Positions 15,103-53,760 of a stretch of 64,000 nt of DNA are shown one piece after another. The notes beneath the pieces are model-generated. The model worked only from the letters and a program-made list of their open reading frames with translations, did not search any database and was not told where the DNA came from. How positions within the stretch are numbered: position 1 is the first letter of the stretch; the number at the start of each line of letters is the position of its first letter. Origin of the DNA: Methanobacteriota archaeon (lineage in GTDB: Archaea > Thermoplasmatota > Thermoplasmata > SG8-5 > JAGLSY01); contig JAEHCQ010000004.1 in assembly GCA_020696385.1 (NCBI GenBank), positions 192,997 to 256,996 on the forward strand, in the 5' to 3' direction. Made by a program: the position numbers and the translations under genes.

Positions 15103-15103
15103 G

Positions 15104-16660: not shown

Positions 16661-16688
16661 TGTTATTATTAAAACCTTCTAAAAAGAA

Positions 16689-19414: not shown

Positions 19415-19507
19415 GGTATTCACGCTCTGTTTATTTCTTGATTTTATTTCCTGACTATATGATGTAATATTTATACATGTTCTAAACAATAGTTAACACT
19501 TATTTGC

Positions 19508-21810: not shown

Positions 21811-21818
21811 CTACCTCT

Positions 21819-36058: not shown

Positions 36059-36757
36059 ATGAAAAGAACTCCCATCCAGAAATTCTATTTCGATATCTCA
36101 AAGAGATACGAGATCGTCAATACCTGCATCACCATGGGTCTTGATAAGCCATGGCGCAGAAGGGCCGCCAAGGCCGCGTCCTCTCAGGGTGGTAAGATGT
36201 GGCTGGACATGTGCTGTGGAACTGGCGATATGTCTGCGGACCTGAACCAGCACATTGGCCAGGATACAAGATTGGTGATGGCGGATTTCTCACAGGAAAT
36301 GATGGATATTGCCAATAACAAGCCTGGGCTGGAGGACAAGGACAAGACCCTGGCCGATGCCTTCAATTTGCCTTTCAAGGACAATTCTTTCGACCTGGTG
36401 ACAATATCCTTCGCCACCAGGAACCTGAACCTTGGCCAGAGTGGTCTGGTTAAGGCCTTTTCGGAGTTCAACAGGGTATTGAAGCCAAATGGAAAGCTGG
36501 TCAATATCGAAACAAGCCAGCCCAAGTCGAAGTTTGTAAAGTCCATGTTCCATCTTTATGTCGGGACGATCATCAAACCCATTGGCTATGTTTTCACAGG
36601 CGACAAGACCAGCTACACTTTCCTGGCTTCTTCTATAACCAATTTCCTTGACCCGGAATCTTTCAATGAAGTATTGACCAGATCTGGTTTTTCAGACATG
36701 ACCTTCGAACCTCTTTTGTTCGGAGCCATTTCCATTCATACCGCTAATAGTCAATGA
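36059..36757 (+). CDS. menG: Demethylmenaquinone methyltransferase (MenG/UbiE)
   Basis: YE..N...TMGLDKPWRR, LDMCCGTGD, LPFKDNSFD, RVLKPNG, Y.FLASSI. Confidence 0.85.
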   Translation: MKRTPIQKFYFDISKRYEIVNTCITMGLDKPWRRRAAKAASSQGGKMWLDMCCGTGDMSADLNQHIGQDTRLVMADFSQEMMDIANNKPGLEDKDKTLADAFNLPFKDNSFDLVTISFATRNLNLGQSGLVKAFSEFNRVLKPNGKLVNIETSQPKSKFVKSMFHLYVGTIIKPIGYVFTGDKTSYTFLASSITNFLDPESFNEVLTRSGFSDMTFEPLLFGAISIHTANSQ

Positions 36758-36846
36758 GATATCATTGGTCTTAAAGGGCGATAAGTTCATCTACATTACT
36801 TAACGATAACAAAAGGTAAATATTCTATTTGCATATTCGAGTCCAT

Positions 36847-37494
36847 ATGGGTTCGAAAGTCACCACTTCCATTCGATCAATAATGTTCACTGTGATCATC
36901 ACCGCATTTCTGCTCACAATAGCCCTAGGTCATGCCAGTGGCGATGATGATGGTAAAGGCGATCTGGATGATGATTGTGTTGGTTGTCATTCGGATGGTG
37001 GTAGCGGAACTGTTTCTATCAGTTCCGAGTTTGATACTTTCGAGGCTGGTCAGGATGTTATAATATCCATTCCGGTCAATATGGATTCCAGTGATTCGGA
37101 TGCCATGATGCCTGGTGTGATGATATTGTCAGGAGCTGGATCCAATGTTAAGGGCGATGGCTGGACCATATCCTCTGATCCAAATGGCAATGCACTGCCA
37201 ATGAACTATAATGAGATGTCTGGCATATCTGGTGAGACTGAATTTCAATGGACTCTGGTGGCACCTGAAACACCAGGAGATTACTCGGTTTTCGCAAGAC
37301 TCATCTACGATGACGGCGGGGCCAAATTCTTAGAGACTGAGGCCCTTTCCTTCACAATAACAGAGGCCTCATCAGTTGCATCAGACACTGATACAACCGA
37401 TGAGAGACCAGACCAAACACCCAAAGCTTTAAGTTTTGGAATATTGGTCGGCATTGTGGGAATAATGATAATAACAATACTGAGGCGTAGATAA
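36847..37494 (+). CDS. Secreted monoheme cytochrome c with C-terminal membrane anchor
   Basis: Signal peptide, single CVGCH, beta-rich FQWTLVAP segment, TM + RRR tail. Confidence 0.7.
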   Translation: MGSKVTTSIRSIMFTVIITAFLLTIALGHASGDDDGKGDLDDDCVGCHSDGGSGTVSISSEFDTFEAGQDVIISIPVNMDSSDSDAMMPGVMILSGAGSNVKGDGWTISSDPNGNALPMNYNEMSGISGETEFQWTLVAPETPGDYSVFARLIYDDGGAKFLETEALSFTITEASSVASDTDTTDERPDQTPKALSFGILVGIVGIMIITILRRR

Positions 37495-38579
37495 TGGCTG
37501 GCGAAGGAACTCCAAAGAATGCGGGCAAGTCTGCAGGTTTAGTTGGAATGCTGGTGCTAATCGCAGTTATGGCGATCGCGGTGATCATTGTACTTGCTTC
37601 CTATTCCGTATACACTGATTTTGTTGGCGAGGAAGTTCCTGTTCTCCATGTGGAAGTGAAATTAAGTGATGGAGAATATGATGACAATGCTGATAGATGG
37701 ATAACCCAGACACAATCCTATGCTCCATATATCAAAGACTTGGGCAGTGATGTCGATGTTTCATTATTGTATGTGGATGCTCTGGACGCCCCAGCTGACG
37801 GGACATTCCTTCTTGGTGAAAGGCCCGTTGTAGTGATATATGCTTTCAATATGGATGATAATTGGAAGACTGGTAAGGCCTCTACAAAGTACATTGGCTC
37901 TGGCGATTACACATTCAATATAACTTTCCCATATACTCCCGAAACAGGTGATCTCATAAAGGTCGTTATTGAAGTTGCCTATGATAAGGATGTATATCCG
38001 AATGAGGACGTGTATCCGCTCTTCAATTCCGATAGATCCAGTGTTATTTATCATTGGGGAGTGCCCAATATGGATTCTGGCTCTGACATAATTGCCAATT
38101 CCGAGTTTGACCGTGAAACAATAGAGATATCTGATCACGCTGTTGAGAGTTATAGATGGTTCATGGAATCGGGAGATGGAAATATAGCCTTTGGATCGCC
38201 TGACAAGGCCATGACCTCTATAAGTGCTGATGTAGATGGTACTTATGTGATCGCTATTGAGGCAACAGATGATCTGGGCAACTTGGGCTATGATAGTTTC
38301 ATTCTAATATGGGATACTACTGCACCTGATGTGGATGTGGGTTTGGATGTAATTAGTAACTCCACAATAACCAAAACAGCTACGGTCAGTGATACTAATG
38401 GCATATCGAATTATACATGGGAAAGAGTATCCGGCCCGGGCTATGTATCATTTAGTTCGCCATACGCTCCAATTACCGATATAGATGCATCAGTTCGTGG
38501 TAATTATACTGTACAATTAAGCATCATTGACAGTGCAGGGAATGTGGCCGTTGATGAGTTCGATTGGGTCTTCGAATAA
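37494..38579 (+). CDS. Hypothetical membrane-anchored protein with PKD/Ig-like repeats
   Basis: N-terminal TM; two Y.W....G.G...F.SP...T...A...G.Y...L...D..GN...D.F repeats. Confidence 0.65.
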   Translation: MAGEGTPKNAGKSAGLVGMLVLIAVMAIAVIIVLASYSVYTDFVGEEVPVLHVEVKLSDGEYDDNADRWITQTQSYAPYIKDLGSDVDVSLLYVDALDAPADGTFLLGERPVVVIYAFNMDDNWKTGKASTKYIGSGDYTFNITFPYTPETGDLIKVVIEVAYDKDVYPNEDVYPLFNSDRSSVIYHWGVPNMDSGSDIIANSEFDRETIEISDHAVESYRWFMESGDGNIAFGSPDKAMTSISADVDGTYVIAIEATDDLGNLGYDSFILIWDTTAPDVDVGLDVISNSTITKTATVSDTNGISNYTWERVSGPGYVSFSSPYAPITDIDASVRGNYTVQLSIIDSAGNVAVDEFDWVFE

Positions 38580-38764: not shown

Positions 38765-39388
38765 ATGAAAAACAGAACATTAGTTCTAGCAGTATCAGTA
38801 CTGTGCGTGGGAATAATGATCATGCCGTATACGGTATCATTGTTTAGCACCCAGCACGACTGGAAGGCCGGAGCTGACGTGAATTGTATGACCTGCCACA
38901 CGGATATAACAGAACCAGGCGCATCATACATGCACGGCAGCATGACCTCTGGAACAGCACAGGAATACTGTACATCTTGCCATCAGTTAGGCACACCAGG
39001 ATCCGGTGACGGTGTCACTGGTGACGGTGGCTTTGATGACGAGCATGCAGCAGTTTCCGTTGAGTGTTTGGATTGTCACGAGACATCCCAGAGTGCAGGC
39101 GCTATTTCAGACGTATGGTACAGTGGCACAGGAGCTGAGGATGCTCTGGCAAACAAGGCTTTCATAAACAATGCAACAGAAGCCCACAGCAACATGACTG
39201 GAACGGCATCACTTGATGAGGGAGCATGGGCATCGGATTACCTTGCTGGTAACAACGAGGCCTGTATCGCATGTCACACAAATGTGACACTCGAGACATA
39301 CCTTACCGTGACCGCTCAGACACTGAACATCACTGCTAGTGAGAACATATGGGGCAACTGGACTGTAACCTTTACAGCCAAGCCATAA
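38765..39388 (+). CDS. Tetraheme cytochrome c, archaeal extracellular cytochrome nanowire (ECN)-like subunit
   Basis: Signal peptide ending P.TVSLF..QH.W; CMTCH, CTSCH, EHAA...CLDCH, EAH...NEACIACHT; no anchor; strong GAGGTGA SD. Confidence 0.75.
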   Translation: MKNRTLVLAVSVLCVGIMIMPYTVSLFSTQHDWKAGADVNCMTCHTDITEPGASYMHGSMTSGTAQEYCTSCHQLGTPGSGDGVTGDGGFDDEHAAVSVECLDCHETSQSAGAISDVWYSGTGAEDALANKAFINNATEAHSNMTGTASLDEGAWASDYLAGNNEACIACHTNVTLETYLTVTAQTLNITASENIWGNWTVTFTAKP

Positions 39389-39476: not shown

Positions 39477-40346
39477 GTGAAGGCTAATGGAAAAAATATC
39501 ATGATGGTGAAAAAAGAAAAACAAAAACTGGATGAAAAAGGCCAGACCAATCTGAGGAACAATATATTCTTTGTAGCCTCATCATTAATGATAGTAGCTA
39601 CCATAATCCTTCAAAATCCCTTGATCGTTTTCTCTCTTTTCCTTTTGACGGTACTTCATCTATTGCACCATTCCAAAGCAAATGGCAATGAAGCACCCAA
39701 GTCATTCTTCAAAAGCCTGATAGATTATAGAAAGAGAAAAAAGTTAGAGCGTCTCACACAGAATAGAATGACACTCATAAGGCAGAAATTCTATCGCCCT
39801 CGCAATCTCATTCTATTTGTCCCTCTTATAATATGTATAATAGTATTGTATCTATTTCTTTCACATACTATATTCTTTGCAGTTGTGACCTCTGATAGTA
39901 TGAGACCGACCTTCAAAACCGGCGATCTCCTGCTTATGCAGGGGAAAGGCTACACACTCGATGATGAAGATATAATAATGTTCACCACCCCGGAAATACA
40001 GGAGCTGGTCATTCACAGAGTGGATGATATTGAAGATGATGGCGGAATATTGACAAGAGGAGATGCGACCAACCATACGGATAATTGGGTCATTGAGAAA
40101 GATAATGTCCAGGCGGAAGTATTGGAATTCAATGGCAACCCCGTAGTACTAAAGAACACAGGCTGGTATTTCATTGATAATGCACCAGAGGATTCCGCGG
40201 TCTTTTCCGATGAACTGCAATTCACATCATTGATGATGATGACCCTGAAGGAAATAGGAATGGTGATGTTCATAGCTGCAATATTCATGTATCTATTGCT
40301 CACAGCGAGAGATATAAGATTTGCCTCGGCTACCAGGAGAAAATGA
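39477..40346 (+). CDS. Signal peptidase I (S26, archaeal/SipW-like)
   Basis: AVVTSDSMRPTFKTGDL (Ser), LVIHRV (His), TRGDA...D.W. Confidence 0.88.
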   Translation: MKANGKNIMMVKKEKQKLDEKGQTNLRNNIFFVASSLMIVATIILQNPLIVFSLFLLTVLHLLHHSKANGNEAPKSFFKSLIDYRKRKKLERLTQNRMTLIRQKFYRPRNLILFVPLIICIIVLYLFLSHTIFFAVVTSDSMRPTFKTGDLLLMQGKGYTLDDEDIIMFTTPEIQELVIHRVDDIEDDGGILTRGDATNHTDNWVIEKDNVQAEVLEFNGNPVVLKNTGWYFIDNAPEDSAVFSDELQFTSLMMMTLKEIGMVMFIAAIFMYLLLTARDIRFASATRRK

Positions 40347-40364: not shown

Positions 40365-42359
40365 TTGAAAATTATGATTGGTCAGGAAGCTACTATGAAA
40401 AACACGGATAAGATCGAGGGATTCAAAACATTATTGAGGGGCCGTGACGGCCTTTGGGAGTGTATGGAGAATCTGGATGATGGCGATATATCCAATTCCG
40501 TAGAATGCTTTGATATTTTCATTAAGAACAACCCTGATGATATAGATGGCCACATAGGAAAGGCATTGGCCATTTATGAGACTGGCAGGTGGGAAGATGC
40601 CATTAAGGCTCTGACTGAGGGTCTGAAGCTGGATCCTACATATGAACTGGGTCTTTTGATCCGGGCAGAAATGCTAAGGGCGAATGGAAAGCAGGAATTC
40701 GCCTTGAAATTCTATGATAAATTATTATCGATAGCACCTTCAGATGAGAATTATATAGCAAATAGGGTCGAAATACTCAAGGAACTTGGCCAATACGAAG
40801 AAGCTGAGCAGCCAATTGAGGAAATAGATCAACCTGTAGAGGAAGTTGATCGACCTGATGATGAAGCAGAGATACCTGCTCAGTCAGTTGAGCCAGATGC
40901 AGGCGATTGGGATGCCGGTGCGATCGGTGGCGAATCACAAGACGAATCCTTTGTTACCGAACAGCCAGAGGCCATAGAATCAGATTCTGAAGCTTCTTCT
41001 GATGAGGATCCACTTACCGAAAAGGTCATGATGTTCAGAGGGATGAAAGTAACTAGATCATCCGAGTCAACCTTTGAAACAGCTGATGAAGAAGAGACCT
41101 TGAAGGTGATAAAGACCAAAAAAGAGGATGTAAAAAGAACATCCACTCCACATGACAAATGTCCAAAATGCGGTTTCATGAAAGCCGAGACAGAGGCATG
41201 CCCCTTCTGCTCCATAGATGATGACCTCGCGGCTATCGAAGGAGGGGAGATATCCACCGAAGACTTTGTAGGTGAATTGGCTGATACCGATAGCCTTGAC
41301 GATCTGGATCTGGCAGAGCTGGACAAGTTAAGTGCTGAGGAAGAGATAATTGAAGAAAGTCTCCACTTCGAAGAGGATCTGGAGGAATTGGAGGAAATGG
41401 TCTGTGAGAGCTGTGGTGGTATTCTTGATTCATCAAGTGAGTTCTGCAATTCATGTGGCGTAGTGCATGATGATAAGGTCATGTACATGAGGGGGACCAA
41501 AGTCTCCAAGGTATCGACCGACGATAAGCCCATCCTCAATAATTATGAAGAAGATAGATGGTCTTCTTTTGTAGACAAGACAAGATCCGAAAAGAGCCGT
41601 AGTGTAAATATCATCGGAGTTTTCTCTATAATATCTATCGCCATATATCTGATATTCCTGTCCATGTTGGAATTATATGACAGCATATTCGTTGAATTTG
41701 ATTCAATATCTTTCTTCCCGAATATCATCATCTTTTTACTGGGCTTTGGAGCCCTGTATGGTGGAGTGAACATTGCCAGAAACTCCATTGTCTTTGATCA
41801 TTTCCTTGACTCTATCTTCGAGACCGAGGTATATCCTAGATTGGAACCCGCTCTTGAGGAGGTCGCGCAGGTGCAGGCTCGTCTGGAGAACATCGAGGAA
41901 AGGATAGACCGTATGAACCTGAACATCGCTAGGTCCAAGCAGTACCCATCAGCCGCCGAGTTCCCGGCAGTTGCGATATCCAACAGAATATCATCCTTCC
42001 TCAAGATGGTGATCGTGACCAATATAACGATTGGAATAATGATATATGTAATTCTTTATCCTGGTAGCTACGTGCCCTATATCTTCACCATAATGTTCAT
42101 GCTATGGTGGGGTGTCATTACAGATGATTATAAACTATGGAAGAATGCGATATCATGGGCCTGGGCTATCATTCCTATATTTGCTGTACCTTTCATGTCC
42201 ATATTCCTTTATGTCGTCATACCAATTGGCTCCCTTATCGGGCTTGTTGGCGGCTTCCTCATGATATACACCTATGCTTACTTCGCCTGGGTTAGATATT
42301 ATGTCGAAGGAAAACTCCCATTTGACCTATATGAAGCCCAACTTGAAGAGGAAGAATAA
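40365..42359 (+). CDS. TPR + acidic linker + zinc-ribbon + multi-pass membrane protein
   Basis: N-terminal TPR-like helices, CPKC..CPFC and CESC..CNSC, coiled coil between TM groups; ATG 40395 is a likely start. Confidence 0.7.
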   Translation: MKIMIGQEATMKNTDKIEGFKTLLRGRDGLWECMENLDDGDISNSVECFDIFIKNNPDDIDGHIGKALAIYETGRWEDAIKALTEGLKLDPTYELGLLIRAEMLRANGKQEFALKFYDKLLSIAPSDENYIANRVEILKELGQYEEAEQPIEEIDQPVEEVDRPDDEAEIPAQSVEPDAGDWDAGAIGGESQDESFVTEQPEAIESDSEASSDEDPLTEKVMMFRGMKVTRSSESTFETADEEETLKVIKTKKEDVKRTSTPHDKCPKCGFMKAETEACPFCSIDDDLAAIEGGEISTEDFVGELADTDSLDDLDLAELDKLSAEEEIIEESLHFEEDLEELEEMVCESCGGILDSSSEFCNSCGVVHDDKVMYMRGTKVSKVSTDDKPILNNYEEDRWSSFVDKTRSEKSRSVNIIGVFSIISIAIYLIFLSMLELYDSIFVEFDSISFFPNIIIFLLGFGALYGGVNIARNSIVFDHFLDSIFETEVYPRLEPALEEVAQVQARLENIEERIDRMNLNIARSKQYPSAAEFPAVAISNRISSFLKMVIVTNITIGIMIYVILYPGSYVPYIFTIMFMLWWGVITDDYKLWKNAISWAWAIIPIFAVPFMSIFLYVVIPIGSLIGLVGGFLMIYTYAYFAWVRYYVEGKLPFDLYEAQLEEEE

Positions 42360-42361
42360 TA

Positions 42362-43834
42362 ATGACCAGTTTATCATCTATATGTGAGGATCATCTTGGA
42401 TGTTCCTCATTACCAAAACCCCTTGCCGTTCTATTATTATCATTAATATTTCTCATGCTGATCGGTTTGCCAACAGCAGCACAGGAAGACCCCCCCATGA
42501 ATGCGACTGGTTACAATCATTGGCTGGAGATCATGCAGGGTGATATACCGGATTCCGAGCAGGTGGAAGCTGATAATATGCTACTGGTCCATGATACCAT
42601 GTTCTACGTGGTCCCATGGTATGAGTCCCGGGTTTACATGAGCATTCCAAATGGCGCGGAGGTCGTGTATATACTCGATGTTCACAACCTGTTCAATAAT
42701 GGTTCATGGGGTCAGTCCGAGTATGTGGATTGGTACTATTGGGAATTCGAACAGGGTGCTGATAGAGATATGTACGCCTTCGTGGAGCATGATTCAAGTG
42801 CTGTTTTTTCCCAGGGTGATTATGATGCAACTCTGTTCGATATCAATGACAATGGAACATCACTGAAGTCAAACATCACATATGGCGAGTACACGTCACT
42901 CAGCATCACCAATTCCGAGATCGTGAACTTCACATCCGCCAGTCCTATTTTCAATTCCAACTCGAGTAATGTGACCTTTCAGTTATCCAATGATAATGGA
43001 ACAACATGGATCGCATGTGGTAGTGGTGAGACTATAGATTTCACAACCAGTGGTAATGAGCTGAAATATCGGGCTATCTTATCAGATAATCCAGTCACCC
43101 AGCCGGATATTTCCAATATCACCATAGAATATTCATACACACCCCAGTCCACCATCATCGCCCTCAGATCTGAATATGTGATATTCAGCGAGACCGATCC
43201 CCTCAGTTTCAATATGCAGAAACAGCTTATGTACGATATAAGCGATGTCAATATCCTATTCTATCATGACCCTGGCTTTGAACCCGGATCCGATAATATC
43301 ACATGGATGCAACATTATGAGATAAATCCCGCGATGCTTGAAGCATTTGAAAAGCCTGGCAAGGAGGTTCATATAGGCTCGGCGACACCCGGTCTTCTGA
43401 TCTCTATGTCACTTGTGGAGGGACATGGAGATGATGCCGCTGGTCCCAATTATTACCTCTATTCCATCATAGCTGTTATAATAATAATTTCATTGATGGG
43501 CATTTACCTGTCAAGGAAAGACTCTGACCTGGAAGGTGATGACTTGAAAGATACAAGTTCATCCGAGACCCTGGAAGATGGCGAACCATCCGAAGATGAG
43601 GCTGATAAGGACGATGACATAGAGAAAGCGGAAGTGCCAGAAAACGAGGACACTGAAGCATTTGTGGAAGTCAATGATGATTTTTCAACTCAGAAAGAGA
43701 ACATCCTGAAGGCCATCAAGAAGCTCGATGCTGACCTGGAAAGCGGTGACATATCAAAGGATGTCCATACCGAGCTCAAAGCCAATTACAAGAAGGAAGC
43801 GGTTAGGGTAATGAAGGAACTGGATAAGCAGTGA
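42362..43834 (+). CDS. Hypothetical single-pass surface protein with CcmI-like C-terminal motif (paralog of 23754..25457)
   Basis: Shared VPW...VY.SIP.G, S.D.G..W, TP.I..I.IEY blocks; tail IKKLDADLESGDISKDVHTELKANYKKEA. Confidence 0.7.
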   Translation: MTSLSSICEDHLGCSSLPKPLAVLLLSLIFLMLIGLPTAAQEDPPMNATGYNHWLEIMQGDIPDSEQVEADNMLLVHDTMFYVVPWYESRVYMSIPNGAEVVYILDVHNLFNNGSWGQSEYVDWYYWEFEQGADRDMYAFVEHDSSAVFSQGDYDATLFDINDNGTSLKSNITYGEYTSLSITNSEIVNFTSASPIFNSNSSNVTFQLSNDNGTTWIACGSGETIDFTTSGNELKYRAILSDNPVTQPDISNITIEYSYTPQSTIIALRSEYVIFSETDPLSFNMQKQLMYDISDVNILFYHDPGFEPGSDNITWMQHYEINPAMLEAFEKPGKEVHIGSATPGLLISMSLVEGHGDDAAGPNYYLYSIIAVIIIISLMGIYLSRKDSDLEGDDLKDTSSSETLEDGEPSEDEADKDDDIEKAEVPENEDTEAFVEVNDDFSTQKENILKAIKKLDADLESGDISKDVHTELKANYKKEAVRVMKELDKQ

Positions 43835-43911: not shown

Positions 43912-46900
43912 TCAAGAGCCGAAATCTGTCTTATGACATTCCCAATTTGGATATGTATTGGCTGTTCCTGATGGATTAGCTCCAGGATAAAGCCAAGTCC
44001 TTGGAGTCCCAGAAACAAAGATCGAGTAATATCCATTTGCATGCGCGCCAGTGCCGTACATCTCATTATCCGCTCTGGATGGTAAGAAGTGGCATGTCCT
44101 ACATGGAACTTCGCCATTCTCTGTGAAGTCACCATCATTATCGAAGTCCCACATATCTCCTTCCTCAGCATCCTGATGAGCTCCAGTTGTATGCGGATAA
44201 GAACCAGGATGATCCACACCTGTGGTTCCTTCAACATACATCTCGATCCTGGATCCATGGCAGTTACCACATCCAACCGCTGGATTATCCCAGTCTGCTG
44301 TTGCACCTGCCCAGTTGCCCCAACTATTATCCACTCCAGCCACACCTCCTGAATTATCATCCACAGCATTACTGTGGCACCATGTGTTCGTGCAGGTCTG
44401 TGTTGCCGCAGTATATGTGGGGTTGGTCCCTCCCCAGTTGAATTGATCCGAGATGGATGCTGGATCAACTGCTGTGTATACCTGTGTGGTCATATCCACA
44501 TGCTGGCTTGTTCCATAAGTACCAAGACCAGCGGTCGGTGGAGTATTGTAATGGCATTCTGAGCAATCATAATCATACCATGCGAAGTAAACATCCCACC
44601 ATGGTCCGCCATCGTAATTCGTGATGCCGGCCCCATCGCCCCATGTTGTGCCTGCGCTTATTGCATCATATTGGAGAACCCAGTGATCTGCCGTGAGTTG
44701 CTCATCCGTGGCTATGGTAAGCAATGTAGTGCCGCCATTAGTACTCTCTATGATGATGGTCTCCTTGAAACCGCCTCTTCCATCATAATTGCCATCATGA
44801 TCGGCATCCATGTATGCCACCCGGTCAACCGCGTTCGCATTGGATTGGATGTGCTTCCAGGTTCCAGATGGTCCAGCTCCTGTGTACAGTCTTTCTCCTT
44901 GCTCCCAGTAGGTTCCGTCGCCATCCATGTCGAAGCATATGGATTCCTGATAATCGTAAGCATTATCACCGTTAGCATCTGCCCACCAGACATCATCTGT
45001 GGCAACAAAGCGAGTTATATCTGCCAGACCTGGAGTGATAATCTCATCTGGTGAACCAACACCATTCAAACGTCCTGGATCAAGCAGGTAAACGCCGTCA
45101 TTATCGCTTATGACGGCCTCATTCGCATCATATGCTCCATCTCCGTCATTGTCGATGTATGCCAGGTTTCGCGTCGCGCCCCACGCGCCTCCAAAGTTAC
45201 GCGTGTGCTTCAGATGGCTGGCACTGTTTCCAGTGACAGTGCCGCCCAGCTCTCTGTCGGCTCCATCATTGTAATTCGGCATACCGTGGCAATCGCCGCA
45301 GGTCATGGCTGTTAATGAGTTCCATGCGGGAGTGGTGAAGTATATGTCTCCAGCTCCCCCGATATCATATCCATTGCTGTGACAGTAGATATTGTCACAG
45401 GTGTCATCACCATTGTAGGCTGGAGTTACACCACTACTACCGCCATATGTGCCAATGCCAGCGGGGTCGAACAGTACATCCACCTTTCCATCAACGTGAA
45501 GGGTGCTTCCATATGTTGTGTCGGTCCAGCCAGCGGCCGAGGTCCCTGCCACATAATGACATTCTGAACAATTGAAATCATACCAGGGGTCTGCATCTGG
45601 TATGTTATTGCTCGTATGCCTTCTGTGAGCGTAAGATGTCATTGGTATATCGTGGCAATCCCCACACCCTACATTATCCGCGAGCCAATCCGGTGTCACG
45701 CCAGGTGAGAATCCACTGGCATTACCATCACTGTGGCAGTATGTATTGGCGCATAGTGAATTGCTGGTCGCATTGTAGGTCGGTGAAAGTGCATTGGCAT
45801 ATGTCGCTATGCCGACCGTGGATGGAGCGGTTGTATTGAACCTCACCTGCAATGTTCCATCTCCATGCTCGGCTGTTCCATAGGTGTTGTCATACCATCC
45901 ATCTTGATCTCCAGCTGAATTGAAATGACATTGCGAACAATTGTAATCGTAATCTGGAATACTCCAATCAACAACGATATGCTTCACGTGTTGGTAGGAA
46001 TCTGCACCACAGTCTATTCCACCTGGGTGACATGCTCCGCCCCATTCCCTGCCATCTGGATGGCAATTCGCATCATTGACATCACAGGTTCCATATGAGG
46101 CATCGCCTTCTAAAAGTGAACCGGTATTGTCTGGGTATAGATTGGCCGTGGTGATATAAGCGTCAAAGTCACCAGTGAAATCGAAACTGATCTGTCCGTC
46201 AATGTGGGAGAAGGTATTGTCCCCTGGTAAGTATAGGCCAGTCTGCAGATGGCATTCACTGCATATCATATTCGCCCTGGCTGGATTGAGATGTCCAGTA
46301 TGGCTTCCTGTCTCTATTGGGGTTGTATCTGCCCATTCTCCGCCGTGGCATAGATCACAGGCCGCGGTAGTGGCATCTCCCCAGTTGGGAAGCCATGGAG
46401 TTATGGTAGCATCATCATCAGTAACAGCATCATGGCAATAAACATCACATGTATTTCCTGAAACATAATTGACCATGGTCCAGCCCCATTCGGTATTGGT
46501 CTGAAGACCAGGTGGGAATCCCGCGCCTGCATTGTCCCACCATGCTACATCGAAATCACCATCGACGTGGCTTGCGGTCCCATAGGTGCCGTCGGTGGAT
46601 GGACTGCCCGCAACGCTGTCCCAGTGGCATTCTCCGCAACGATAAACCTCTGCCTCCGCATGTTCTGGATGATTATTGGTCAAAGGCTTATTGCCCACGG
46701 TATTGTCTCCGTGGCAGCTACCGCCACCACCCGCACTGCAATAACTGGTCGCAGCATTATCCCACACAGGAGTTGGATCCTTCGCATTGCCATCTACACC
46801 ATCGGTCGGGTCGTGGCAGAAGATATCTGAACAGGTGTCAGTTCCGCTATTCCAAACTCCGGTGAAGGCGGCATTACCGAACTGTAATGCCAGTCCGGTT

Positions 46901-49900
46901 GCAGTGTTATTGAAAACGACCTGAACTTGCCCATCAACATGCTGTGATGTTCCATAAGTTGTGTCATACCAGCCAGAGCCAGCACCTGAACTTCCGGCCA
47001 CGAAATGACATTCTGAACAATTGAAGGTGTATGGAGATCCATTGCTATGCTTCGGATGGCTGGATGTTGTTGGTGCCATGTCGTGGCAGTCTCCACATGC
47101 GACACCTGGTGTGTCCCATTCAGGGGAGGCCGCGTTCCATGAGAAGCTAGCGGGGTATCCATCGCTGTGACAGTATGTGTTGTCACATTCCATATTGGTT
47201 GTCGTGTTGTAGGCTGGTGCCAGGTTATTGGCATATGTCGCAATACCGACTGTGGAAGGAGCGGTGGTATTGAACCTCACCTGCAATGTGCCGTCTCCAT
47301 GCTCGGCTGTTCCATAGGTGGTGTCGTACCATCCATCCTGGTCTCCAGCCGAATTGAAATGACATTGTGAGCAATTGTAATCGTAATCCGGTATGTTCCA
47401 GTCTGCAGCCATGTGTTTGCCATGCTCATTGGAGTCTGCACCGCATAGTATTCCGCTTGGGTGGCATTCTGCAGTTGGGTTATGTCCCTCTGTGGGATCA
47501 AATGGATAATTGTGCTTATAATGGCAGCTTGAAGAAGTACAGTCATCACGGCCACTCACGACCCATGATGTGGAAGTTCCATGGGTGGGTGGTGTTTCTC
47601 TGGGATCTGTAGCATCCACAACACCATTGTCAACAAGATGACATCCTCCAACTCCCATGTCTTGGTCGCCACATCCCTGGATACTGCTTCCTCCGAAGAG
47701 CTGGGCGCCATCATCTGTATCATCTGGTTTCAGTAAATGATCTGGATGGCAGTCCACACACTCCACGGTCCCGTCTGCATCGATAAGGGTGCTGGTGGTG
47801 TGCTTCGCACCATCATTGGTGAAGCTCGTGAAGATGTCCTTCATCCACGGTGTGCTGGCATCCTGATATGGAACTCTCGAGTCCAGATCCGAGTAATGGC
47901 ATACCACGTCGCAGAAGGCATTGTCCACATTGGTGTCCGCAGCCGCTGCATATGTTGTCCAGTCTATATCGACAACATGAGGGATATCATGCGGATACCA
48001 TGGCTCTACTGCCGTGTCATGGCAATCCTCGCAATGTGTGTAATCGTAATTTGATATTGATTCATTAAGATGGTTGATGTATTTTCCGCTTCCAAAGGGA
48101 ACTGGATTGGTTCCAGTATCATCATGGCAGTCGGCACAACTGCTGACAACTCTTGGGTATACCTGTTCGAAGGCCGTTGTGGATGTATTCCACACATTGA
48201 CGGTTTGATCTGGCTCTGTCCAAACTTGGATTATGAGGCCGGAACCGGGTGCAGATGAGAAATCATGCCACATGATATGTATCTCATCAATTGAAACTGT
48301 GTCCTGCTGTACGGCGTCCCCTGAGTTCGTGTCAATGACATTCAGGTATATCGGGCCGGACATCACGGGAATTGATGCGGAATATGCGGTCAATGCGACA
48401 TTGTTTACCGTTATCACAGGAGTATAAGGTCCTCCCTGAATTGTAGAATATCCGATATCGAAATCATCATCACCGGCTGCGCGGCTGGCATTGACCAGTA
48501 ATGTGAGATCGTCCGCTCCAGCGGGTATGGACTCTGTTCGCCAGATATGTTCGAGCGAGTAAGTGCCTCCGACTGATTCGATCCATTGAATTCTTATTCT
48601 TTCAATGGTAACATCATCCGCCTGGCTATCAACAGCATTATCATCCACCACTCTGAGGTAAAGAACACCGGAAGTAGCTCCCGGGAAGTTCCAGTTGTAT
48701 GAAGTGAGTGTATCTGAGTTGATGGTTATCGTGGTCGGATTGTATGTCGCATCATCCGTGGACCATTCTATGGTGAATGTATCATCGGAGCCAGTATTGT
48801 AATTTCCCTCGACATAAAGTGTCAGGGTCGTCGCTCCCGCAGGTATATTGTCCGTGCGCCAACGATGCTCCAGCGAGGCCGTGACAGGATTGCTGACAAG
48901 ATGCTGTATTCGAACAATATCAATGACAACGCTATCCGCCTGGCTGTCTGCTCCATTATTGTCCACAACACTCAGATAAAGAACACCAGATGTTGCTGCT
49001 GGGAAGTTCCATGAATAGGTGGCCATGGCATTGGTATTTATGGTTATTGTCGTTGGATTATAAGTCACATCATCAGTTGACCAGTATATCGTGAATGTAT
49101 CGTCAGAGCCAACTGGATTGTACTGCGCATCCACGAAGAGTGTGAGAGTATCTGCTCCTGGGGCTATATTGTCCGTTCGCCATCTATGCTCGAGGCTGGC
49201 AACAACTGGAATGTTCTCATACCATTCCAGGCGAATTGTATCTATCTGGCAGGTGGTGAGTAATGCATCTCCTGTATTGTCATCTATTATCTGGATGTAA
49301 AGAACACCGATCTCGCCCAGTGGGAAAGTGAATGGCGCGTAGGTGGTCATCGCGACATTGTTTATGTTTATGCCAGTATCCACATATGATATATCATCAT
49401 TTGACCAGAACACACTGAACACATCATCCCCTGGAGCTGTTGATAATGCTCTCACATAAAGATTGAGAGCGGTGTAGCCAGCCGGAATGCTGTCCGTTGT
49501 CCATTTGTGCTCCAGTGAAGGAGCTCCTCCAGCAGTGGTCACAATGACCTTGATGTAATCGAATGATACCGCATCGCCTCCTCCTCCATCATTGTTCTGG
49601 AATCTGACGTCCAGGGTGGATATCTGAGCCAGAGTGGTCACACCCTGGGCAAAGAGATTGTATTGTGCAGTGAGATCCACTTGTCCATTTGTTGGCGTTA
49701 TGCCTGTGGTTGCCTGTGCTCCACCATTCAGTGCCCAAGTGATGGCATTTGATCCAGTGTATCCTCCTTCAACAGAGTATTGGACCTCCAACATGACTCC
49801 GGTCACAGTTCCGCTCATTCCACCAGTGTTGAAGGCATCCATGAAAAGGATCCTGTTCTTATCAACAGTGTACCAGCCATCACCTGCTGCTACCGCACCC

Positions 49901-51654
49901 GGAGAGGCTCCTGCAGTATCATCTGCATTGATCTCGTTTATGAGCTCTGTTGTGGTGTCTGTTCCGCCCACGACACTGGCGAATGCATCTCCACCAACTC
50001 CGCTAGCCGCGACTTCCTGTATGGTCTCGATATCTCCCACAGCGGGGTTTTCATCAATATTCTGCCAGTATGGTGGACCTGCTGTACCGCCCACAGTTCC
50101 TTCAACCGCGATATCGGATGCAACCGTGTAATTGGCCCAAACATCACCGCCAGTAGTCGCCTCAGTTATGGTCTGCGTAAGCCCATCTGATGGATCGATC
50201 TCGTCAATATTGGTGTAAGTGTTGGTGACCGTTCCATGATTAGCCGCATTTAGCTGATCCAGGTCCACTGTGTAATTGGAATAGACATCACCGCCAGAAG
50301 TGATCTCGGTGATGGTTTCAATAAGCCCATCAGCCGGGTTGATCTCATCAATGTTCAGATAACCATTGGCTGCAGGTACGACAGTTCCGTGAACAGCCGC
50401 ATTTGGCTGATCCAAGTCCACTGTATAATTTGCATAATTATTCGCTCCACCAGCGACCTCCTGTATGGTCTGTACTCCAGCTCCATGAGTGTTTGCCTCT
50501 GTTCCTGCAACAGTGCCGTGATTGGCAGCATCCACAGGATCCAGATCCGTGGTGTAATTGGCCCAGGTGTCAACTCCTCCACCACTTCCAACAGGGTCAA
50601 GCCAGTTATATCCACTGTGACATCCCCAGCACAGATCTCCTTCTTTCTGATGGGACATGCCAGTTGCGGTTGTTATCTCATTGAAGATCGTGGTCATATT
50701 TGCGGAAACATGTGTGTCACCACGATCATGGCAGCCATTTAATCGATTCGCACAGGTGATGTTCTTGGCCGCGTGATATTCAGTATCCGCAACCTCCTGG
50801 CTATCAACATGGCAGGAGTCGCACGCTGTGTTCATAAGATGAGTCAGATTGCTCGGTTGTGTCGCTGTATGGTGACCACCGCTGTCGCCCAATCTGGACG
50901 CCACGACATCATTGTGGCACCCACTAACTCCATCTCCACAGCTCACATCATTTACACCAATGTATGTATGGGATTCGCCGGTCTTTGTCCATGTGTATGT
51001 GTTCTCATGCGTTGAAGTGCTGGTCTCCACATTCGTGATCGCGTAGTTCACATCTACAGTGAAATTGTAAAAATCCGGGCGTAAGAAGGTCACGTTCACA
51101 TCGAAGCCAGTATGACAAACGATACAGGCCTCATTAGGTCCTCTGTTGTATATGCTGTTTGGTGCATTGCTGAATAATTCACTGTGTGCTTCAGTAGCGT
51201 AGCTGATATTGGTTGCAACTGTGGGATGACAGCTAATACAAGTAGGCAATGTGGCCGCGTGTTCGTCCCCATACTCCGCAGTAACATCCTGATGACAATC
51301 TGGACATGTCATTCCCTCATGTGGCTCAATACCTGGCGTCCCCAGCATGTTCGTGAACTCCTGGCTAACATCCGCATGGCAATCATCACACGCCTTTCCC
51401 GAGTTCCAATCATGCTGATCAGAAAATAATGAGACTGTAACTGCTCCAATAGATATGGCGGCTATGGCCAGTATCATCATCAAAAGCAGAGCCTTCTTCG
51501 ATACCAATATAGACGGAGTAGAGGTGAACGACTTCGCCGCAGTGGTACTAATAGATGAATCTGCACCCGGGCCGCCCCCGACCTCCGGGTTCATATCTGG
51601 CTGACTATCAATGTCAGGTCCATTTTCTATATCCATTGCCATGTTGATCAGCAA
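43912..51654 (-). CDS. Giant multiheme cytochrome c (2580 aa; 22 CxxCH plus about 13 CX3-9CH)
   Basis: Manual motif count; N-terminal ECN-like modules, heme-free beta-sandwich region, repeated CxxxxCH...CxxCH (Geobacter-type) units; exact start uncertain (ATG 51642 or 51636). Confidence 0.92.
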   Translation of the reverse strand: MLINMAMDIENGPDIDSQPDMNPEVGGGPGADSSISTTAAKSFTSTPSILVSKKALLLMMILAIAAISIGAVTVSLFSDQHDWNSGKACDDCHADVSQEFTNMLGTPGIEPHEGMTCPDCHQDVTAEYGDEHAATLPTCISCHPTVATNISYATEAHSELFSNAPNSIYNRGPNEACIVCHTGFDVNVTFLRPDFYNFTVDVNYAITNVETSTSTHENTYTWTKTGESHTYIGVNDVSCGDGVSGCHNDVVASRLGDSGGHHTATQPSNLTHLMNTACDSCHVDSQEVADTEYHAAKNITCANRLNGCHDRGDTHVSANMTTIFNEITTATGMSHQKEGDLCWGCHSGYNWLDPVGSGGGVDTWANYTTDLDPVDAANHGTVAGTEANTHGAGVQTIQEVAGGANNYANYTVDLDQPNAAVHGTVVPAANGYLNIDEINPADGLIETITEITSGGDVYSNYTVDLDQLNAANHGTVTNTYTNIDEIDPSDGLTQTITEATTGGDVWANYTVASDIAVEGTVGGTAGPPYWQNIDENPAVGDIETIQEVAASGVGGDAFASVVGGTDTTTELINEINADDTAGASPGAVAAGDGWYTVDKNRILFMDAFNTGGMSGTVTGVMLEVQYSVEGGYTGSNAITWALNGGAQATTGITPTNGQVDLTAQYNLFAQGVTTLAQISTLDVRFQNNDGGGGDAVSFDYIKVIVTTAGGAPSLEHKWTTDSIPAGYTALNLYVRALSTAPGDDVFSVFWSNDDISYVDTGININNVAMTTYAPFTFPLGEIGVLYIQIIDDNTGDALLTTCQIDTIRLEWYENIPVVASLEHRWRTDNIAPGADTLTLFVDAQYNPVGSDDTFTIYWSTDDVTYNPTTITINTNAMATYSWNFPAATSGVLYLSVVDNNGADSQADSVVIDIVRIQHLVSNPVTASLEHRWRTDNIPAGATTLTLYVEGNYNTGSDDTFTIEWSTDDATYNPTTITINSDTLTSYNWNFPGATSGVLYLRVVDDNAVDSQADDVTIERIRIQWIESVGGTYSLEHIWRTESIPAGADDLTLLVNASRAAGDDDFDIGYSTIQGGPYTPVITVNNVALTAYSASIPVMSGPIYLNVIDTNSGDAVQQDTVSIDEIHIMWHDFSSAPGSGLIIQVWTEPDQTVNVWNTSTTAFEQVYPRVVSSCADCHDDTGTNPVPFGSGKYINHLNESISNYDYTHCEDCHDTAVEPWYPHDIPHVVDIDWTTYAAAADTNVDNAFCDVVCHYSDLDSRVPYQDASTPWMKDIFTSFTNDGAKHTTSTLIDADGTVECVDCHPDHLLKPDDTDDGAQLFGGSSIQGCGDQDMGVGGCHLVDNGVVDATDPRETPPTHGTSTSWVVSGRDDCTSSSCHYKHNYPFDPTEGHNPTAECHPSGILCGADSNEHGKHMAADWNIPDYDYNCSQCHFNSAGDQDGWYDTTYGTAEHGDGTLQVRFNTTAPSTVGIATYANNLAPAYNTTTNMECDNTYCHSDGYPASFSWNAASPEWDTPGVACGDCHDMAPTTSSHPKHSNGSPYTFNCSECHFVAGSSGAGSGWYDTTYGTSQHVDGQVQVVFNNTATGLALQFGNAAFTGVWNSGTDTCSDIFCHDPTDGVDGNAKDPTPVWDNAATSYCSAGGGGSCHGDNTVGNKPLTNNHPEHAEAEVYRCGECHWDSVAGSPSTDGTYGTASHVDGDFDVAWWDNAGAGFPPGLQTNTEWGWTMVNYVSGNTCDVYCHDAVTDDDATITPWLPNWGDATTAACDLCHGGEWADTTPIETGSHTGHLNPARANMICSECHLQTGLYLPGDNTFSHIDGQISFDFTGDFDAYITTANLYPDNTGSLLEGDASYGTCDVNDANCHPDGREWGGACHPGGIDCGADSYQHVKHIVVDWSIPDYDYNCSQCHFNSAGDQDGWYDNTYGTAEHGDGTLQVRFNTTAPSTVGIATYANALSPTYNATSNSLCANTYCHSDGNASGFSPGVTPDWLADNVGCGDCHDIPMTSYAHRRHTSNNIPDADPWYDFNCSECHYVAGTSAAGWTDTTYGSTLHVDGKVDVLFDPAGIGTYGGSSGVTPAYNGDDTCDNIYCHSNGYDIGGAGDIYFTTPAWNSLTAMTCGDCHGMPNYNDGADRELGGTVTGNSASHLKHTRNFGGAWGATRNLAYIDNDGDGAYDANEAVISDNDGVYLLDPGRLNGVGSPDEIITPGLADITRFVATDDVWWADANGDNAYDYQESICFDMDGDGTYWEQGERLYTGAGPSGTWKHIQSNANAVDRVAYMDADHDGNYDGRGGFKETIIIESTNGGTTLLTIATDEQLTADHWVLQYDAISAGTTWGDGAGITNYDGGPWWDVYFAWYDYDCSECHYNTPPTAGLGTYGTSQHVDMTTQVYTAVDPASISDQFNWGGTNPTYTAATQTCTNTWCHSNAVDDNSGGVAGVDNSWGNWAGATADWDNPAVGCGNCHGSRIEMYVEGTTGVDHPGSYPHTTGAHQDAEEGDMWDFDNDGDFTENGEVPCRTCHFLPSRADNEMYGTGAHANGYYSIFVSGTPRTWLYPGANPSGTANTYPNWECHKTDFGS

Positions 51655-52647: not shown

Positions 52648-53730
52648 TCAGCGTTTGAAGATCGGCTTGCAGTTCACAGCTCGATTCATTCTGTCTGGTC
52701 CCAATAATCTCATCGACATTTCCAGAGTCCAGTTCCTCTTGAAGGCCTTGTCCGCCATCCTCTTTGTATCCAGAGCATTGTCCAGCTCTGGGCCGACATT
52801 CAACCTCCACTCCTCCTCATATTTCTCAAGAGGTGTGTTGTCCTTGAAATGTTCGGATATGACATTGCCAGCGATCCTGCCGCATATCATGGATATCGGT
52901 ATGCCGCCTCCATTTGTCGCCATCACCTGTCCAGCCGCATCCCCGACTATCATGACATTACCCTTGACAGTTTTCGGGATGGGCCCTGATATTGGAACAA
53001 ATCCCGCACTTAGCTGCTCGATCTTTCCCAGGCCTCGGACCTTGAGGAATTTGTCAAGCATCTTCCTCAATGACACATTCCCTGTCTTCTGAATGCCAAG
53101 GCCGACATTCGCTCCGTCGCCCTTTGGGATCACCCAGGCATATCCGCCAGGGGCTATTGTGCCGAAGAACATCTCCACGATCGGCTCGAAATCCCCGGAT
53201 ACCTGTCCGAGCATGCAGGGGCACAGGACATGCTCGACCTGCATTCCCGCGGATCTGGCAACATTGGATTTGAAACCATCTGCTCCGACAACTATCTTTG
53301 CTTTTATGCTTCCTTTATCGGTCTCGACGATGTCGCCCTTCAGGGACTTGAACTTCGTCCCTGTTCGGAGCTCTGCTCCCGCCTCTGTCGCCTTGCTGGC
53401 CAGATGTTTGTCGAAGTATCTTCTATCAACTGTGAATCCTTCAAAATCAATATCATATTTCCGGTTCTTCGGTGATACGAACCGGATCTTCTCCGTCTTC
53501 ATCTTGATAAGCCTGTCATCGATATTGAAAAGCTCTGATTGATCCTTGACACGGGGTATGATCCTTTGCATTTCCTTGGTGGATGGTATGAATTCCCCGC
53601 ATTGAACAGGCTCCCCAACCGCCTTTCTCTGGTCGATGATTATCACATTCAAACCAGACTTGGCTGCATAATGCGCTGTTGAACTTCCAGCAGGCCCGGC
53701 TCCGATAACTGCGACATCGAATTCTTCCAT
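52648..53730 (-). CDS. Geranylgeranyl / prenyl reductase
   Basis: GAGPAGS, GEPVQCGE, APGGYAWVIPKG, GDAAGQV...GGGI. Confidence 0.9.
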   Translation of the reverse strand: MEEFDVAVIGAGPAGSSTAHYAAKSGLNVIIIDQRKAVGEPVQCGEFIPSTKEMQRIIPRVKDQSELFNIDDRLIKMKTEKIRFVSPKNRKYDIDFEGFTVDRRYFDKHLASKATEAGAELRTGTKFKSLKGDIVETDKGSIKAKIVVGADGFKSNVARSAGMQVEHVLCPCMLGQVSGDFEPIVEMFFGTIAPGGYAWVIPKGDGANVGLGIQKTGNVSLRKMLDKFLKVRGLGKIEQLSAGFVPISGPIPKTVKGNVMIVGDAAGQVMATNGGGIPISMICGRIAGNVISEHFKDNTPLEKYEEEWRLNVGPELDNALDTKRMADKAFKRNWTLEMSMRLLGPDRMNRAVNCKPIFKR

Positions 53731-53760
53731 TTTCAATCACTCTGTTCTCGTTAATGATCA

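Follow-up and report, generated by a model that had tools for sequence, protein, structure and literature searches.

A giant archaeal cytochrome headed by two AvECN-type modules: a possible end piece of a cytochrome nanowire

A giant multihaem cytochrome (P0025), encoded in the 64,000-nucleotide stretch of archaeal DNA analysed here (the window), begins with a tetrahaem module of the AvECN type followed by a degenerate second copy. According to Baquero et al. 2023, the extracellular cytochrome nanowire of Archaeoglobus veneficus (PDB 8E5G) is reportedly built of the tetrahaem subunit AvECN. The giant is a member of a multi-module branch of the AvECN/MmcX family. We propose, with a probability of about 0.4, that it works with the stand-alone ECN of its own cluster and acts as a terminal adaptor of the ECN wire and not as an internal or branch subunit. 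It may represent the first dedicated end piece of an archaeal cytochrome nanowire. The gene cluster and the parts of the giant are as follows.

36829..38579 (+): two genes further upstream in the cluster, one for a monohaem protein anchored at its C-terminus (choice-of-anchor V-like, below cut-off), the other for a membrane protein that carries PKD domains
38765..39388 (+): stand-alone tetrahaem ECN homologue P0002, 207 aa, with a motif series matching module 1
39477..40346 (+): signal peptidase I of the archaeal type (TIGR02228, 67.4 bits, cut-off 51.85; synteny)
40365..42359 (+): TPR and zinc-ribbon protein ending in a polytopic membrane domain, conserved beside the peptidase
42362..43834 (+): membrane protein consisting of an extracellular domain, a single helix and a coiled, acidic tail, convergent with the giant
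43912..51654 (-): giant multihaem cytochrome P0025, frame from TTG, open for 2580 codons (2580 aa)
51499..51642 (-): N-terminal tail, residues 5-52, acidic, lacking Cys and His, with a Lys-Lys end before the helix
51439..51492 (-): single hydrophobic helix, residues 55-72, with the only Kyte-Doolittle windows of at least 1.6
50977..51438 (-): module 1, residues 73-226, by its motifs a complete AvECN-type tetrahaem subunit, with a beta-hairpin past haem 4
50593..50976 (-): module 2, residues 227-354, a degenerate duplicate of module 1
48253..50592 (-): variable non-haem insert, residues 355-1134, containing a single Cys and about five repeats, each roughly 115 aa long
48154..48252 (-): closing strands of the two-module unit (IQVWTEP...EQVYP), residues 1135-1167, from by-eye comparison
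43912..48153 (-): multihaem region at the C-terminus, residues 1168-2580 and stop codon, with 24 firm and 3 long-spacer haem sites

The order along the giant is therefore N-tail, hydrophobic helix, module 1, module 2, non-haem insert and C-terminal haem region. As called in public data, the gene starts at M5 (51642) and encodes 2576 aa; the orthologue at L014 has 2590 aa. The span 50600-51500, to which the first-pass annotation had assigned a nanowire module, takes in the helix and both modules (limits here 50593-51492). Among public sequencing runs none of RNA is listed, and one DNA run contained a small share (0.06) of the query words. The signal peptidase scores weakly against the SipW model (37.9 bits against a cut-off of 190), and no family was found for the protein at 42362..43834 (+). 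The window also holds a second cytochrome, cytochrome b and Ccm cluster.

In module 1 the arm TVSLFSDQHDW occupies residues 73-83 and CXXCH motifs lie at 89, 117, 139 and 177, giving haem residues C89/C92/H93, C117/C120/H121, C139/C142/H143 and C177/C180/H181. All four distal histidines (81, 112, 132 and 157) are kept, so none of the axial ligands, the loss of which the first-pass annotation had named as a danger to its proposal, has disappeared. The four CXXCH motifs and four distal His are invariant in the 7 giant-type rows; across 100 family rows each is conserved to at least 90%. BLASTP aligns P0002 with the giant at 32% identity over 180 columns (E 1e-15; P0002 1-176 on giant 51-190), an alignment that takes in the hydrophobic helix. 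The collinearity originally noticed between the giant's N-terminus and the tetrahaem protein at 38765 is borne out by this hit and by the matching motif series, and the motifs quoted for the giant (TVSLFSDQHDW, CDDCH, CPDCH, DEHAA, CISCH, ATEAHS and NEACIVCHT) are all present in its translation. Judged by alignment, the likeness is greater than the common CXXCH motifs.

Comparison with the A. veneficus filament 8E5G, whose model covers 220/262 AvECN residues, gave E 2.4e-12 for P0002, E 1.6e-5 for the N-terminal part of the giant as a single sequence, and E 6.8e-9 for a 7-row profile of the giants' heads, the last spanning AvECN residues 24-246 of 262. On this profile evidence module 1 is a complete AvECN-type subunit. 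A Foldseek search with the AF2 model (pLDDT 78) returned 8E5G with probability 1.00 and a TM of 0.41 by target over 204 columns, the sole match below E 0.7. When the whole giant was searched against the PDB, there was no match at E 0.1. The arm motif T-V/L-S-L-F-x-x-Q-H-x-W/F occurs in 90/147 family representatives, in 77 of these 90 at residue 20-29; in the giants it is found at about 64-71, owing to the tail.

Module 2 repeats the motif series of module 1 in a degenerate form, with an arm-like His229, CX6CH at 239, CXXCH (CDSCH) at 278, YHAA at 293-296 (His294), CX6CH at 301 and CXXCH (CWGCH) at 342; it has no counterpart of the EAH histidine. Profile-profile comparison (hhalign) with module 1 gave 98.5% probability and E 3.1e-15 over 100 columns, and comparison with the stand-alone family gave E 2.5e-15 over 71 columns; a shallower profile test returned 71% and E 3.6e-5. 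The degenerate second module proposed earlier is hence real. The insert that follows is missing from the L009 orthologue and different in P0027, P0028 and P0029. It matches no Pfam family (best E 0.04), which leaves the adhesive domains once suggested for the giant without Pfam support in residues 355-1134. By eye, the closing strands beyond it are the counterpart of the stretches with which stand-alone two- and three-module proteins end at the C-terminus.

The N-region carries 8 haem sites by motif count. Beyond it, 16 CXXCH, 2 CX3CH and 6 CX4CH make up 24 firm sites, to which 3 long-spacer candidates can be added; the initial estimate of about 27 more haems was fair, and the total for the giant is roughly 32-35. 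The C-terminal region consists of CX4CH/CXXCH pairs with an acidic, Asp-rich insert at about 2140-2340. PF09698 matches the whole giant with 45.3 bits (gathering cut-off 21.7) and the C-terminal 1,420 aa with 49.7 bits (E 5.9e-13, 6 stretches, cut-off 21.7). Past residue 100 the top 19-residue Kyte-Doolittle mean is 1.26 and the sole hydrophobic segment lies at about 55-72, which confirms that the protein has no C-terminal anchor.

The helix of the giant is either the core of a signal peptide or a signal anchor that stays in place. It is poorly conserved across families (32% versus 63-67% for the following 150 aa). The preceding N-tail, presumably cytoplasmic, is 45-70 residues long in all close giants and missing from the stand-alone ECNs; in L009 and L012 the stretch from about -47/-70 to -13 (inside the helix) contains no start codon, which means that these two translate the tail. 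Its length argues for a retained anchor, as judged from sequence. The pre-arm segment is conserved in ECNs and not in giants, hence the two paralogues are under different constraints and are probably not handled identically; the residues preceding the arm are IMPY in the stand-alone protein versus IGAV in the giant, with no Pro before the giant's arm. An attached helix would put the arm 1-9 residues from the membrane, hindering docking. Cleavage of both proteins by the same peptidase had been suggested. The signal peptidase I gene is the only match in the 94.5%-complete genome: a dedicated peptidase is rejected, and with one such enzyme detected, cutting by the same peptidase carries no information.

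Tail and arm context bear on a different, somewhat unlikely explanation, in which the giant is an independent membrane-anchored conduit: the helix would be a signal anchor and the protein a self-contained 32-35-haem wire on the cell surface. In this similarly doubtful picture module 2 would complete module 1 to make the head a closed octahaem domain, electrons would pass to ECN filaments or minerals by transient contact only, the common module would reflect ancestry and the co-occurrence one respiratory pathway. The 45-70-residue tail of all close giants and the missing Pro before the arm fit such a conduit, the second cytochrome, cytochrome b and Ccm cluster suits a general electron-export lifestyle, and the known filaments are all homopolymers. 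Against it, module 1 keeps the full ligand set that serves neighbouring subunits in AvECN, and the head has 8 haems against about 7-8 conserved non-motif His, with module 2 lacking the EAH histidine.

Phylogeny places module 1 and the neighbouring ECN apart. In a tree built without the N-terminal arm columns, a branch with SH-aLRT 99 separates 44 rows (giants and multi-module proteins) from all others, among them the stand-alone clade of the neighbouring gene (11 rows); the full-column tree agrees, with a deep-split support of only 80. Module 1 groups with P0035 and P0036 (SH-aLRT 88). Both trees reject a recent duplicate of the neighbouring ECN gene as the origin of module 1. The equation of module 1 with "the same nanowire module" has to be given up, as it sits in a separate multi-module branch (SH-aLRT 99 without arm columns); with 32-35% identity outside the arm, module 1 and ECN are old paralogues. 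Two- and three-module ECN-like cytochromes of 280-670 aa also exist as free-standing genes (e.g. P0036, P0035, P0040 and P0030), for which no name was found in the literature. Both the deep paralogy with the ECN clade and these free-standing genes, which make the head an evolutionary and perhaps structural unit, agree with an independent conduit.

A scan of 401 Thermoplasmata-class genomes found a tetrahaem-size ECN ORF in 6 and a two-module or giant ORF in the same 6; of the remainder, 2/401 had one weak match each and 393/401 none. Three further archaeal genomes, chosen for a multi-module match, all had tetrahaem-size ORFs (3/3). Hence the search for genomes combining module fusions and stand-alone genes, recommended in the first-pass annotation, found both types together in all 9 genomes, 6 from the class scan and 3 preselected for the multi-module match. 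The number of independent lineages behind these genomes is small. In 4/9 genomes (G000, G002, G207 and G402) the two genes lie within 2-12 kb of each other, and G402 has the same convergent layout and a signal peptidase I gene. Such tight linkage and strict co-occurrence in several lineages speak against a conduit working alone.

The same is true of the arms. The first 11 mature residues match between co-resident paralogues, the mature start being predicted. Of 83 family rows that share less than 40% identity with P0002 once the arm is left out, the seven with the closest arms (9-10/11) all belong to the giants' clade, and in G207 a Tyr at arm position 5 (rare, 6/94 rows) and His-Glu-Trp are found in both paralogues. 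The match is partly inheritance, because the arm motif is family-wide (90/147 representatives). With the arm columns removed, the tetrahaem gene of L020 joins the 8-row set of the L020 multi-module gene, at the end of a long branch (1.88); the two may be recent duplicates. The L020 arm match was set aside as a case of independent co-evolution, given this possible duplication.

Docking of P0002 to the giant head gave an ipSAE of 0.64, the best of 3 controls reaching 0.00; the mark used is reached by 58/80 solved complexes and 2/110 mismatched pairs. At least 80% of the contacts recur between runs, with partner pLDDT at or above 66, and the interface joins residues 7-17, 21-25 and 60-66 of the giant fragment to P0002 131-141 and 168-206. 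The input comprised two alignments with many common rows, including P0002 itself, and 4 haems for 12 sites, and the pass may be due to memory of the solved homologous filament 8E5G. Owing to the overlapping rows, 8E5G and the haem number, the pass shows family likeness and not binding of this pair. It counts against a self-contained conduit with the same proviso of possible 8E5G memory.

The passing model would also suit a stoichiometric accessory role for "ECN", in which one or a few tetrahaem subunits sit on the multi-module head as a short hetero-oligomer and no micrometre-long wire forms. We regard this as improbable. The tetrahaem type always has a multi-module partner in the genomes examined, and no Thermoplasmata filament was found in the literature. 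However, P0002 aligns with AvECN from arm to hairpin and keeps its arm for a further subunit, that arm being free in the docking model; nothing limits polymer length, and the cluster with its peptidase and membrane proteins resembles filament operons.

The first-pass annotation had offered a branch or hub as well as a tip. Module 1 does have both an arm and a hairpin face, as would be needed if the giant were internal, branching, a hub or self-polymerising, with module 1 inserted between ECN subunits or between other giants and the remainder decorating the wire. We consider this very improbable: the ECN-like arm segment of module 2, with its own arm-like His directly after module 1, should occupy the polymerisation face meant for the next subunit, a wire could hardly make room for about 2,300 residues with every subunit inserted, and there is one giant gene per genome (two in G001).

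The data show homology, a complete ligand set, the architecture, the co-occurrence and the synteny; for the preferred terminal adaptor, we infer docking, polarity and function as follows. Three of the four AvECN haems are His-ligated from another subunit, according to the accessible portion of PMC12203936, so an ECN-type module would be made for completion by a neighbour. An ECN subunit would receive, on its haem-4/C-terminal-hairpin face, the arm (His81) and His132 of module 1. Module 2, covalently joined and equipped with His229, would fill the matching face of module 1 and carry the variable non-haem insert in a loop. The giant would therefore fit one end of the ECN polymer only, stopping or starting growth there, and would extend the haem chain into its own 8 plus ~25 haems. 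With the helix retained, that end could be the cell-proximal base, serving electron entry and anchoring; with the helix cleaved, it could be the distal tip, touching a mineral or partner.

A wider extension is put forward more tentatively: AvECN-type nanowires could be polar two-component machines, with a multi-module paralogue as the obligatory end subunit. With similar reserve, that subunit might nucleate or terminate the tetrahaem polymer, fix its polarity and connect it to the membrane or an external acceptor. Under this extension the trio of tetrahaem ECN, multi-module ECN-like protein and signal peptidase I recurs across distant archaeal lineages.

Solved cytochrome filaments are all homopolymers as far as the consulted portions of 10.1101/2023.06.12.544705 and 10.1101/2024.12.21.629920 go, and the accessible text of PMC13748539 reports no cell-attached filament and no physiological role for archaeal cytochrome nanowires. 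No archaeal heteropolymeric cytochrome nanowire was found in the literature. If true, the wider extension would describe the first heteromeric cytochrome nanowire and give a first answer on wire attachment and feeding. A one-end paralogue that continues the haem chain would be a concrete answer to how a wire starts, stops, is anchored and is fed with electrons. Even if docking fails, it still holds that giant cytochromes carry grafted tandem duplicates of AvECN-type subunits, an arrangement not found in print, although the neighbourhood figure or supplements of Baquero et al. 2023 may show multi-module neighbours. The ECN and multi-module pair would serve as a genomic marker for wire-building archaea, one that extends the ECN family to uncultured marine Thermoplasmata.

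Among known systems, AvECN shares with module 1 and P0002 the four CXXCH, the four distal His, NEACIxCHT and an arm-to-hairpin alignment. It is a 262-aa homopolymer whose filaments have been solved, whereas the giant is a 2,580-aa chain with a degenerate copy and a long tail, about 25% identical and from a lineage with no known filament. MmcX-type four-haem cytochromes of Methanocellales, ANME and Archaeoglobales (PMC11176372) and ECN-Mv of 'Ca. Methanoperedens vercellensis' (PMC13748539) are AvECN homologues with signal peptides, proposed as nanowire or electron-uptake proteins; as presented in the accessible parts of both reports, they belong to the family of P0002 and are single four-haem proteins, with no mention there of a fused or multi-module partner. 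The two- and three-module cytochromes have the module order and closing strands of the giant's head, to which the giant adds a ~780-aa non-haem insert and a ~1,400-aa CX4CH/CXXCH haem region. These C-terminal 1,400 residues match the Geobacter CxxxxCH...CXXCH repeat proteins (PF09698). Giant multihaem cytochromes of ANME, Geoglobus and Ferroglobus are described with S-layer-type or C-terminal anchors, and we know of no ECN-subunit head described for them.

End subunits are familiar elsewhere, as the tip adhesins and terminators of chaperone-usher pili and as TapA, which acts with the SipW peptidase for TasA fibres. Like the proposed giant, these are paralogues of the major subunit with one polymerisation face blocked or missing and are confined to an end position. 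A signal peptidase gene is found both in the SipW/TasA operon and in the giant's cluster, where, unlike the SipW-type case, it is the only one detected in the genome and not an extra copy. Folds and chemistry are unrelated: the contacts of the giant would use haem-His ligation.

The giant multihaem cytochrome is encoded by a minus-strand frame at window 43912-51654 that translates as 2580 codons without a stop, within a source genome of 2.28 Mb that is 94.5% complete. The public gene call of this protein (P0025) starts at M5 and comprises 2576 aa. Its features, in residue numbering and all on the minus strand, are:

5-52 (-): N-terminal tail, acidic, without Cys or His
~55-72 (-): hydrophobic segment, the sole such segment in the protein
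directly past the hydrophobic segment (-): 11-residue arm, TVSLFSDQHDW, containing His81
73-226 (-): module 1, four CXXCH motifs alternating with His112, DEHAA and EAHS, then a beta-hairpin
227-354 (-): module 2, motif series CX6CH, CXXCH, YHAA, CX6CH, CXXCH
past module 2, ~780 residues (-): non-haem stretch with a single Cys
C-terminal ~1,400 residues (-): haem region with 16 CXXCH, 2 CX3CH, 6 CX4CH and 3 long-spacer candidates

The C-terminal haem region matches the Pfam Geobacter CxxxxCH...CXXCH repeat, and hydropathy analysis across the giant found no hydrophobic C-terminal segment. An insert rich in Asp and Gly, in which motifs of the D-x-D-G-D type recur, lies within this region (window ~44630-45240, minus strand; residues ~2140-2340) and from its sequence looks like calcium-binding repeats. 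Similar stretches are also present in proteins P0028 and P0039.

The first-pass annotation proposed that the giant begins with the same module as the stand-alone tetrahaem P0002 (window 38765-39388, plus strand; 207 aa), a homologue of the extracellular cytochrome nanowire (ECN) subunits. Collinearity of the two N-termini is borne out by pairwise alignment (giant residues 51-190, 32% identity, E 1e-15). When compared to the PDB, P0002 matched the Archaeoglobus veneficus ECN (AvECN, 8E5G) at E 2.4e-12 and the giant head did so at E 1.6e-5 as a single sequence; a seven-row giant-head profile reached E 6.8e-9, spanning AvECN residues 24-246 of 262. By these matches, P0002 and the giant head are both homologous to the filament subunit solved from A. 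veneficus. The axial ligands of module 1 are kept, with the four haem motifs and His81, 112, 132 and 157 invariant in seven giant-type sequences, and in a family alignment of 100 rows each of these haem motifs and distal (non-motif) His ligands is either invariant or conserved to at least 90%. The proposed second, degenerate module also proved real: profile comparison, at 98.5% probability, matches it to module 1 and to the stand-alone family alike (E ~3e-15 for each), and aligns the arm-like His229 to the arm His of ECN. On this comparison module 2 is a true diverged duplicate, and the giant is a member of the AvECN family in those features that can be read from sequence.

Searching 1.84 billion representatives with a profile returned 207 relatives at a cut-off of E <=0.001. 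The majority are tetrahaems of 160-260 aa in which the match starts at residue 21-29; many others have two or three modules and 280-670 aa, and a few are giants (P0033, P0039 and P0029). In trees of the module 1 region, a multi-module half holds the giants, grouped with the two-module proteins P0035 and P0036, and P0002 falls within an 11-row clade of the tetrahaem half (SH-aLRT of the split 80 for all columns and 99 with arm columns dropped). Hence, 'same module' does not hold in the sense of a copy: since the split places them in separate halves, the giant head is, by these trees, an old paralogue of the neighbouring ECN. An orthologue at locus L009 (1555-2436) has no large non-haem region, module 2 running directly into the closing strands; in P0039, modules 1 and 2 are instead separated by ~400 aa of Asp-rich insert. 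In the giant, the strands past the non-haem insert match the C-terminal ends of two-module proteins that stand on their own. As judged from these layouts, the non-haem stretch has been inserted into a two-module unit, and this large region is both dispensable and mobile. In one genome of the genus (G001), separate contigs (L010 and L012) each carry a giant-type N-terminus, and the two differ.

Co-occurrence with stand-alone ECN genes was confirmed by a search of 401 genomes of the class: six have an ORF of tetrahaem ECN size, and exactly these six also have a two-module or giant ORF. A single weak match was found in each of two others, and 393 are without any. Tetrahaem-size ORFs were found in 3/3 genomes of other archaea, all selected for a multi-module match. 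The ECN and multi-module genes lie 2-12 kb apart in the window's genome and in G002, G207 and G402; in the remaining five genomes they are on separate contigs of fragmented assemblies, which is uninformative on linkage either way. The order monohaem, membrane protein, ECN, peptidase and TPR protein is conserved in G002, G016 and G001, and the ECN-peptidase pair is found again in the distant locus L020 of G402. There the layout is as in the window, with ECN, signal peptidase I, further genes and a convergent multi-module cytochrome. This 6-kb locus of an AT-rich archaeon (L020:1-6046, G402:C31) encodes a nine-CXXCH multi-module ECN-like protein (409 aa), a membrane protein (565 aa), a five-haem protein, signal peptidase I and a tetrahaem ECN (197 aa); in both the multi-module protein and the ECN, the arm shows the rare states Lys-Phe and His-Tyr-Phe.

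The arms of co-resident paralogues resemble each other. When the family is restricted to the 83 rows whose identity to P0002 beyond the arm is <40%, the top seven arm matches to P0002 (9-10 of 11 residues) prove to be exactly the giants, P0034 and P0035. G207 encodes an ECN with the arm TVALYSNQHEW and a two-module protein with AISLYGGQHEW; Tyr at position 5 occurs in 6/94 rows. These matches suggest that co-resident arms share a constraint, but they come from very few independent events and concern an arm conserved family-wide.

In AvECN, the distal His of three of four haems is donated by another subunit, according to a review (PMC12203936). Module 1 keeps all these His, and is therefore predicted to be built for completion by a neighbour. 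A docking model of P0002 with the giant head scored 0.64 (best control 0.00), passing a mark attained by 58/80 solved complexes and 2/110 mismatched pairs; at least 80% of contacts agree between runs and partner pLDDT is at least 66. The giant contributes its arm (fragment residues 7-17, including His81), haem-1 motif and DEHAA segment, and P0002 its EAHS segment, haem-4 motif and C-terminal hairpin, leaving the P0002 arm free. Because a homologous filament is solved, the two alignments share rows and only 4 haems were supplied for 12 sites, this pass shows compatibility of the family's head-to-tail interface with module 1, and nothing further on the co-polymerisation proposed in the first-pass annotation. 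A short, defined hetero-complex of giant and ECN, to which that interface would also be open, appears rather improbable. With the arm-like segment of module 2, the simplest picture would be a chain from ECN (n-1) through module 1 (n) and module 2 (n+1) to the C-terminal haems, with the giant accommodated at one filament end only. Such a one-end fit counts against shaft incorporation and against the 'branch or hub' proposed earlier, and we consider an internal subunit, branch or self-polymer very unlikely. We favour an end adaptor of the ECN wire, with a probability of roughly 0.40.

Which end would depend on N-terminal processing. The peptidase adjoining the ECN gene (window 39477-40346, plus strand), which has additional N- and C-terminal helices, is the sole signal peptidase I found in this 94.5%-complete genome, making the earlier 'same peptidase' claim uninformative. 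The giants carry a tail of 45-70 residues, and a search for start codons yielding a normal short signal peptide in L009 and L012 found none. The residues preceding the arm are IMPY in ECN and IGAV in the giant; across families (this genome versus G016) the ECN pre-arm segment is conserved (73% versus 66% for the mature part), that of the giant poorly so (32% versus 63%). Within the order, the stand-alone ECN signal peptide (window 38765-38830, loci L003-L006) is 73-100% conserved, compared to 58-89% for the mature protein. Such conservation, at least equal to that of the mature protein, is unusual and hints at specific recognition. If the helix is retained, the arm would lie at the membrane surface, favouring a basal anchoring role or the absence of docking. 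We regard an independent anchored conduit as somewhat less probable than the end adaptor; what remains falls to something other than these four readings. For an end adaptor, a cleaved helix would favour the tip, and the fast-varying non-haem insert fits an exposed position.

A second cytochrome cluster (window 14410-23168, minus strand), which also contains CcmC-, CcmB- and CcmA-like maturation genes, may be a membrane-side feeder of the extracellular cytochromes:

16689-17393 (-): cytochrome b561-like membrane protein
17394-18599 (-): 8-CXXCH protein
21819-23168 (-): 11-CXXCH protein
within 14410-23168 (-): CARDB protein and FAD-linked oxidase

Window 5418-9863 (plus strand) encodes a protein of 1,481 aa in which two flavin/pyridine-nucleotide oxidoreductase units, with 4Fe-4S domains, are fused. 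The giant's own cluster is flanked by a UbiE/COQ5-type methyltransferase (36059-36757, plus strand) and a geranylgeranyl reductase-like flavoprotein (52648-53736, minus strand), annotations that fit quinone and isoprenoid lipid synthesis beside electron-export genes.

Literature searches on AvECN, MmcX, heteropolymers and signal peptidase yielded no account of ECN modules fused to larger cytochromes, though Baquero et al. 2023 or supplements may contain one. According to PMC13748539, reports of a cell-attached filament are lacking for archaeal ECNs, and one author states that a heteropolymeric cytochrome filament has not yet been discovered (10.1101/2024.12.21.629920). An end adaptor would join a second type of subunit to the ECN wire; the solved cytochrome filaments, according to 10.1101/2023.06.12.544705 and 10.1101/2024.12.21.629920, are all homopolymers.
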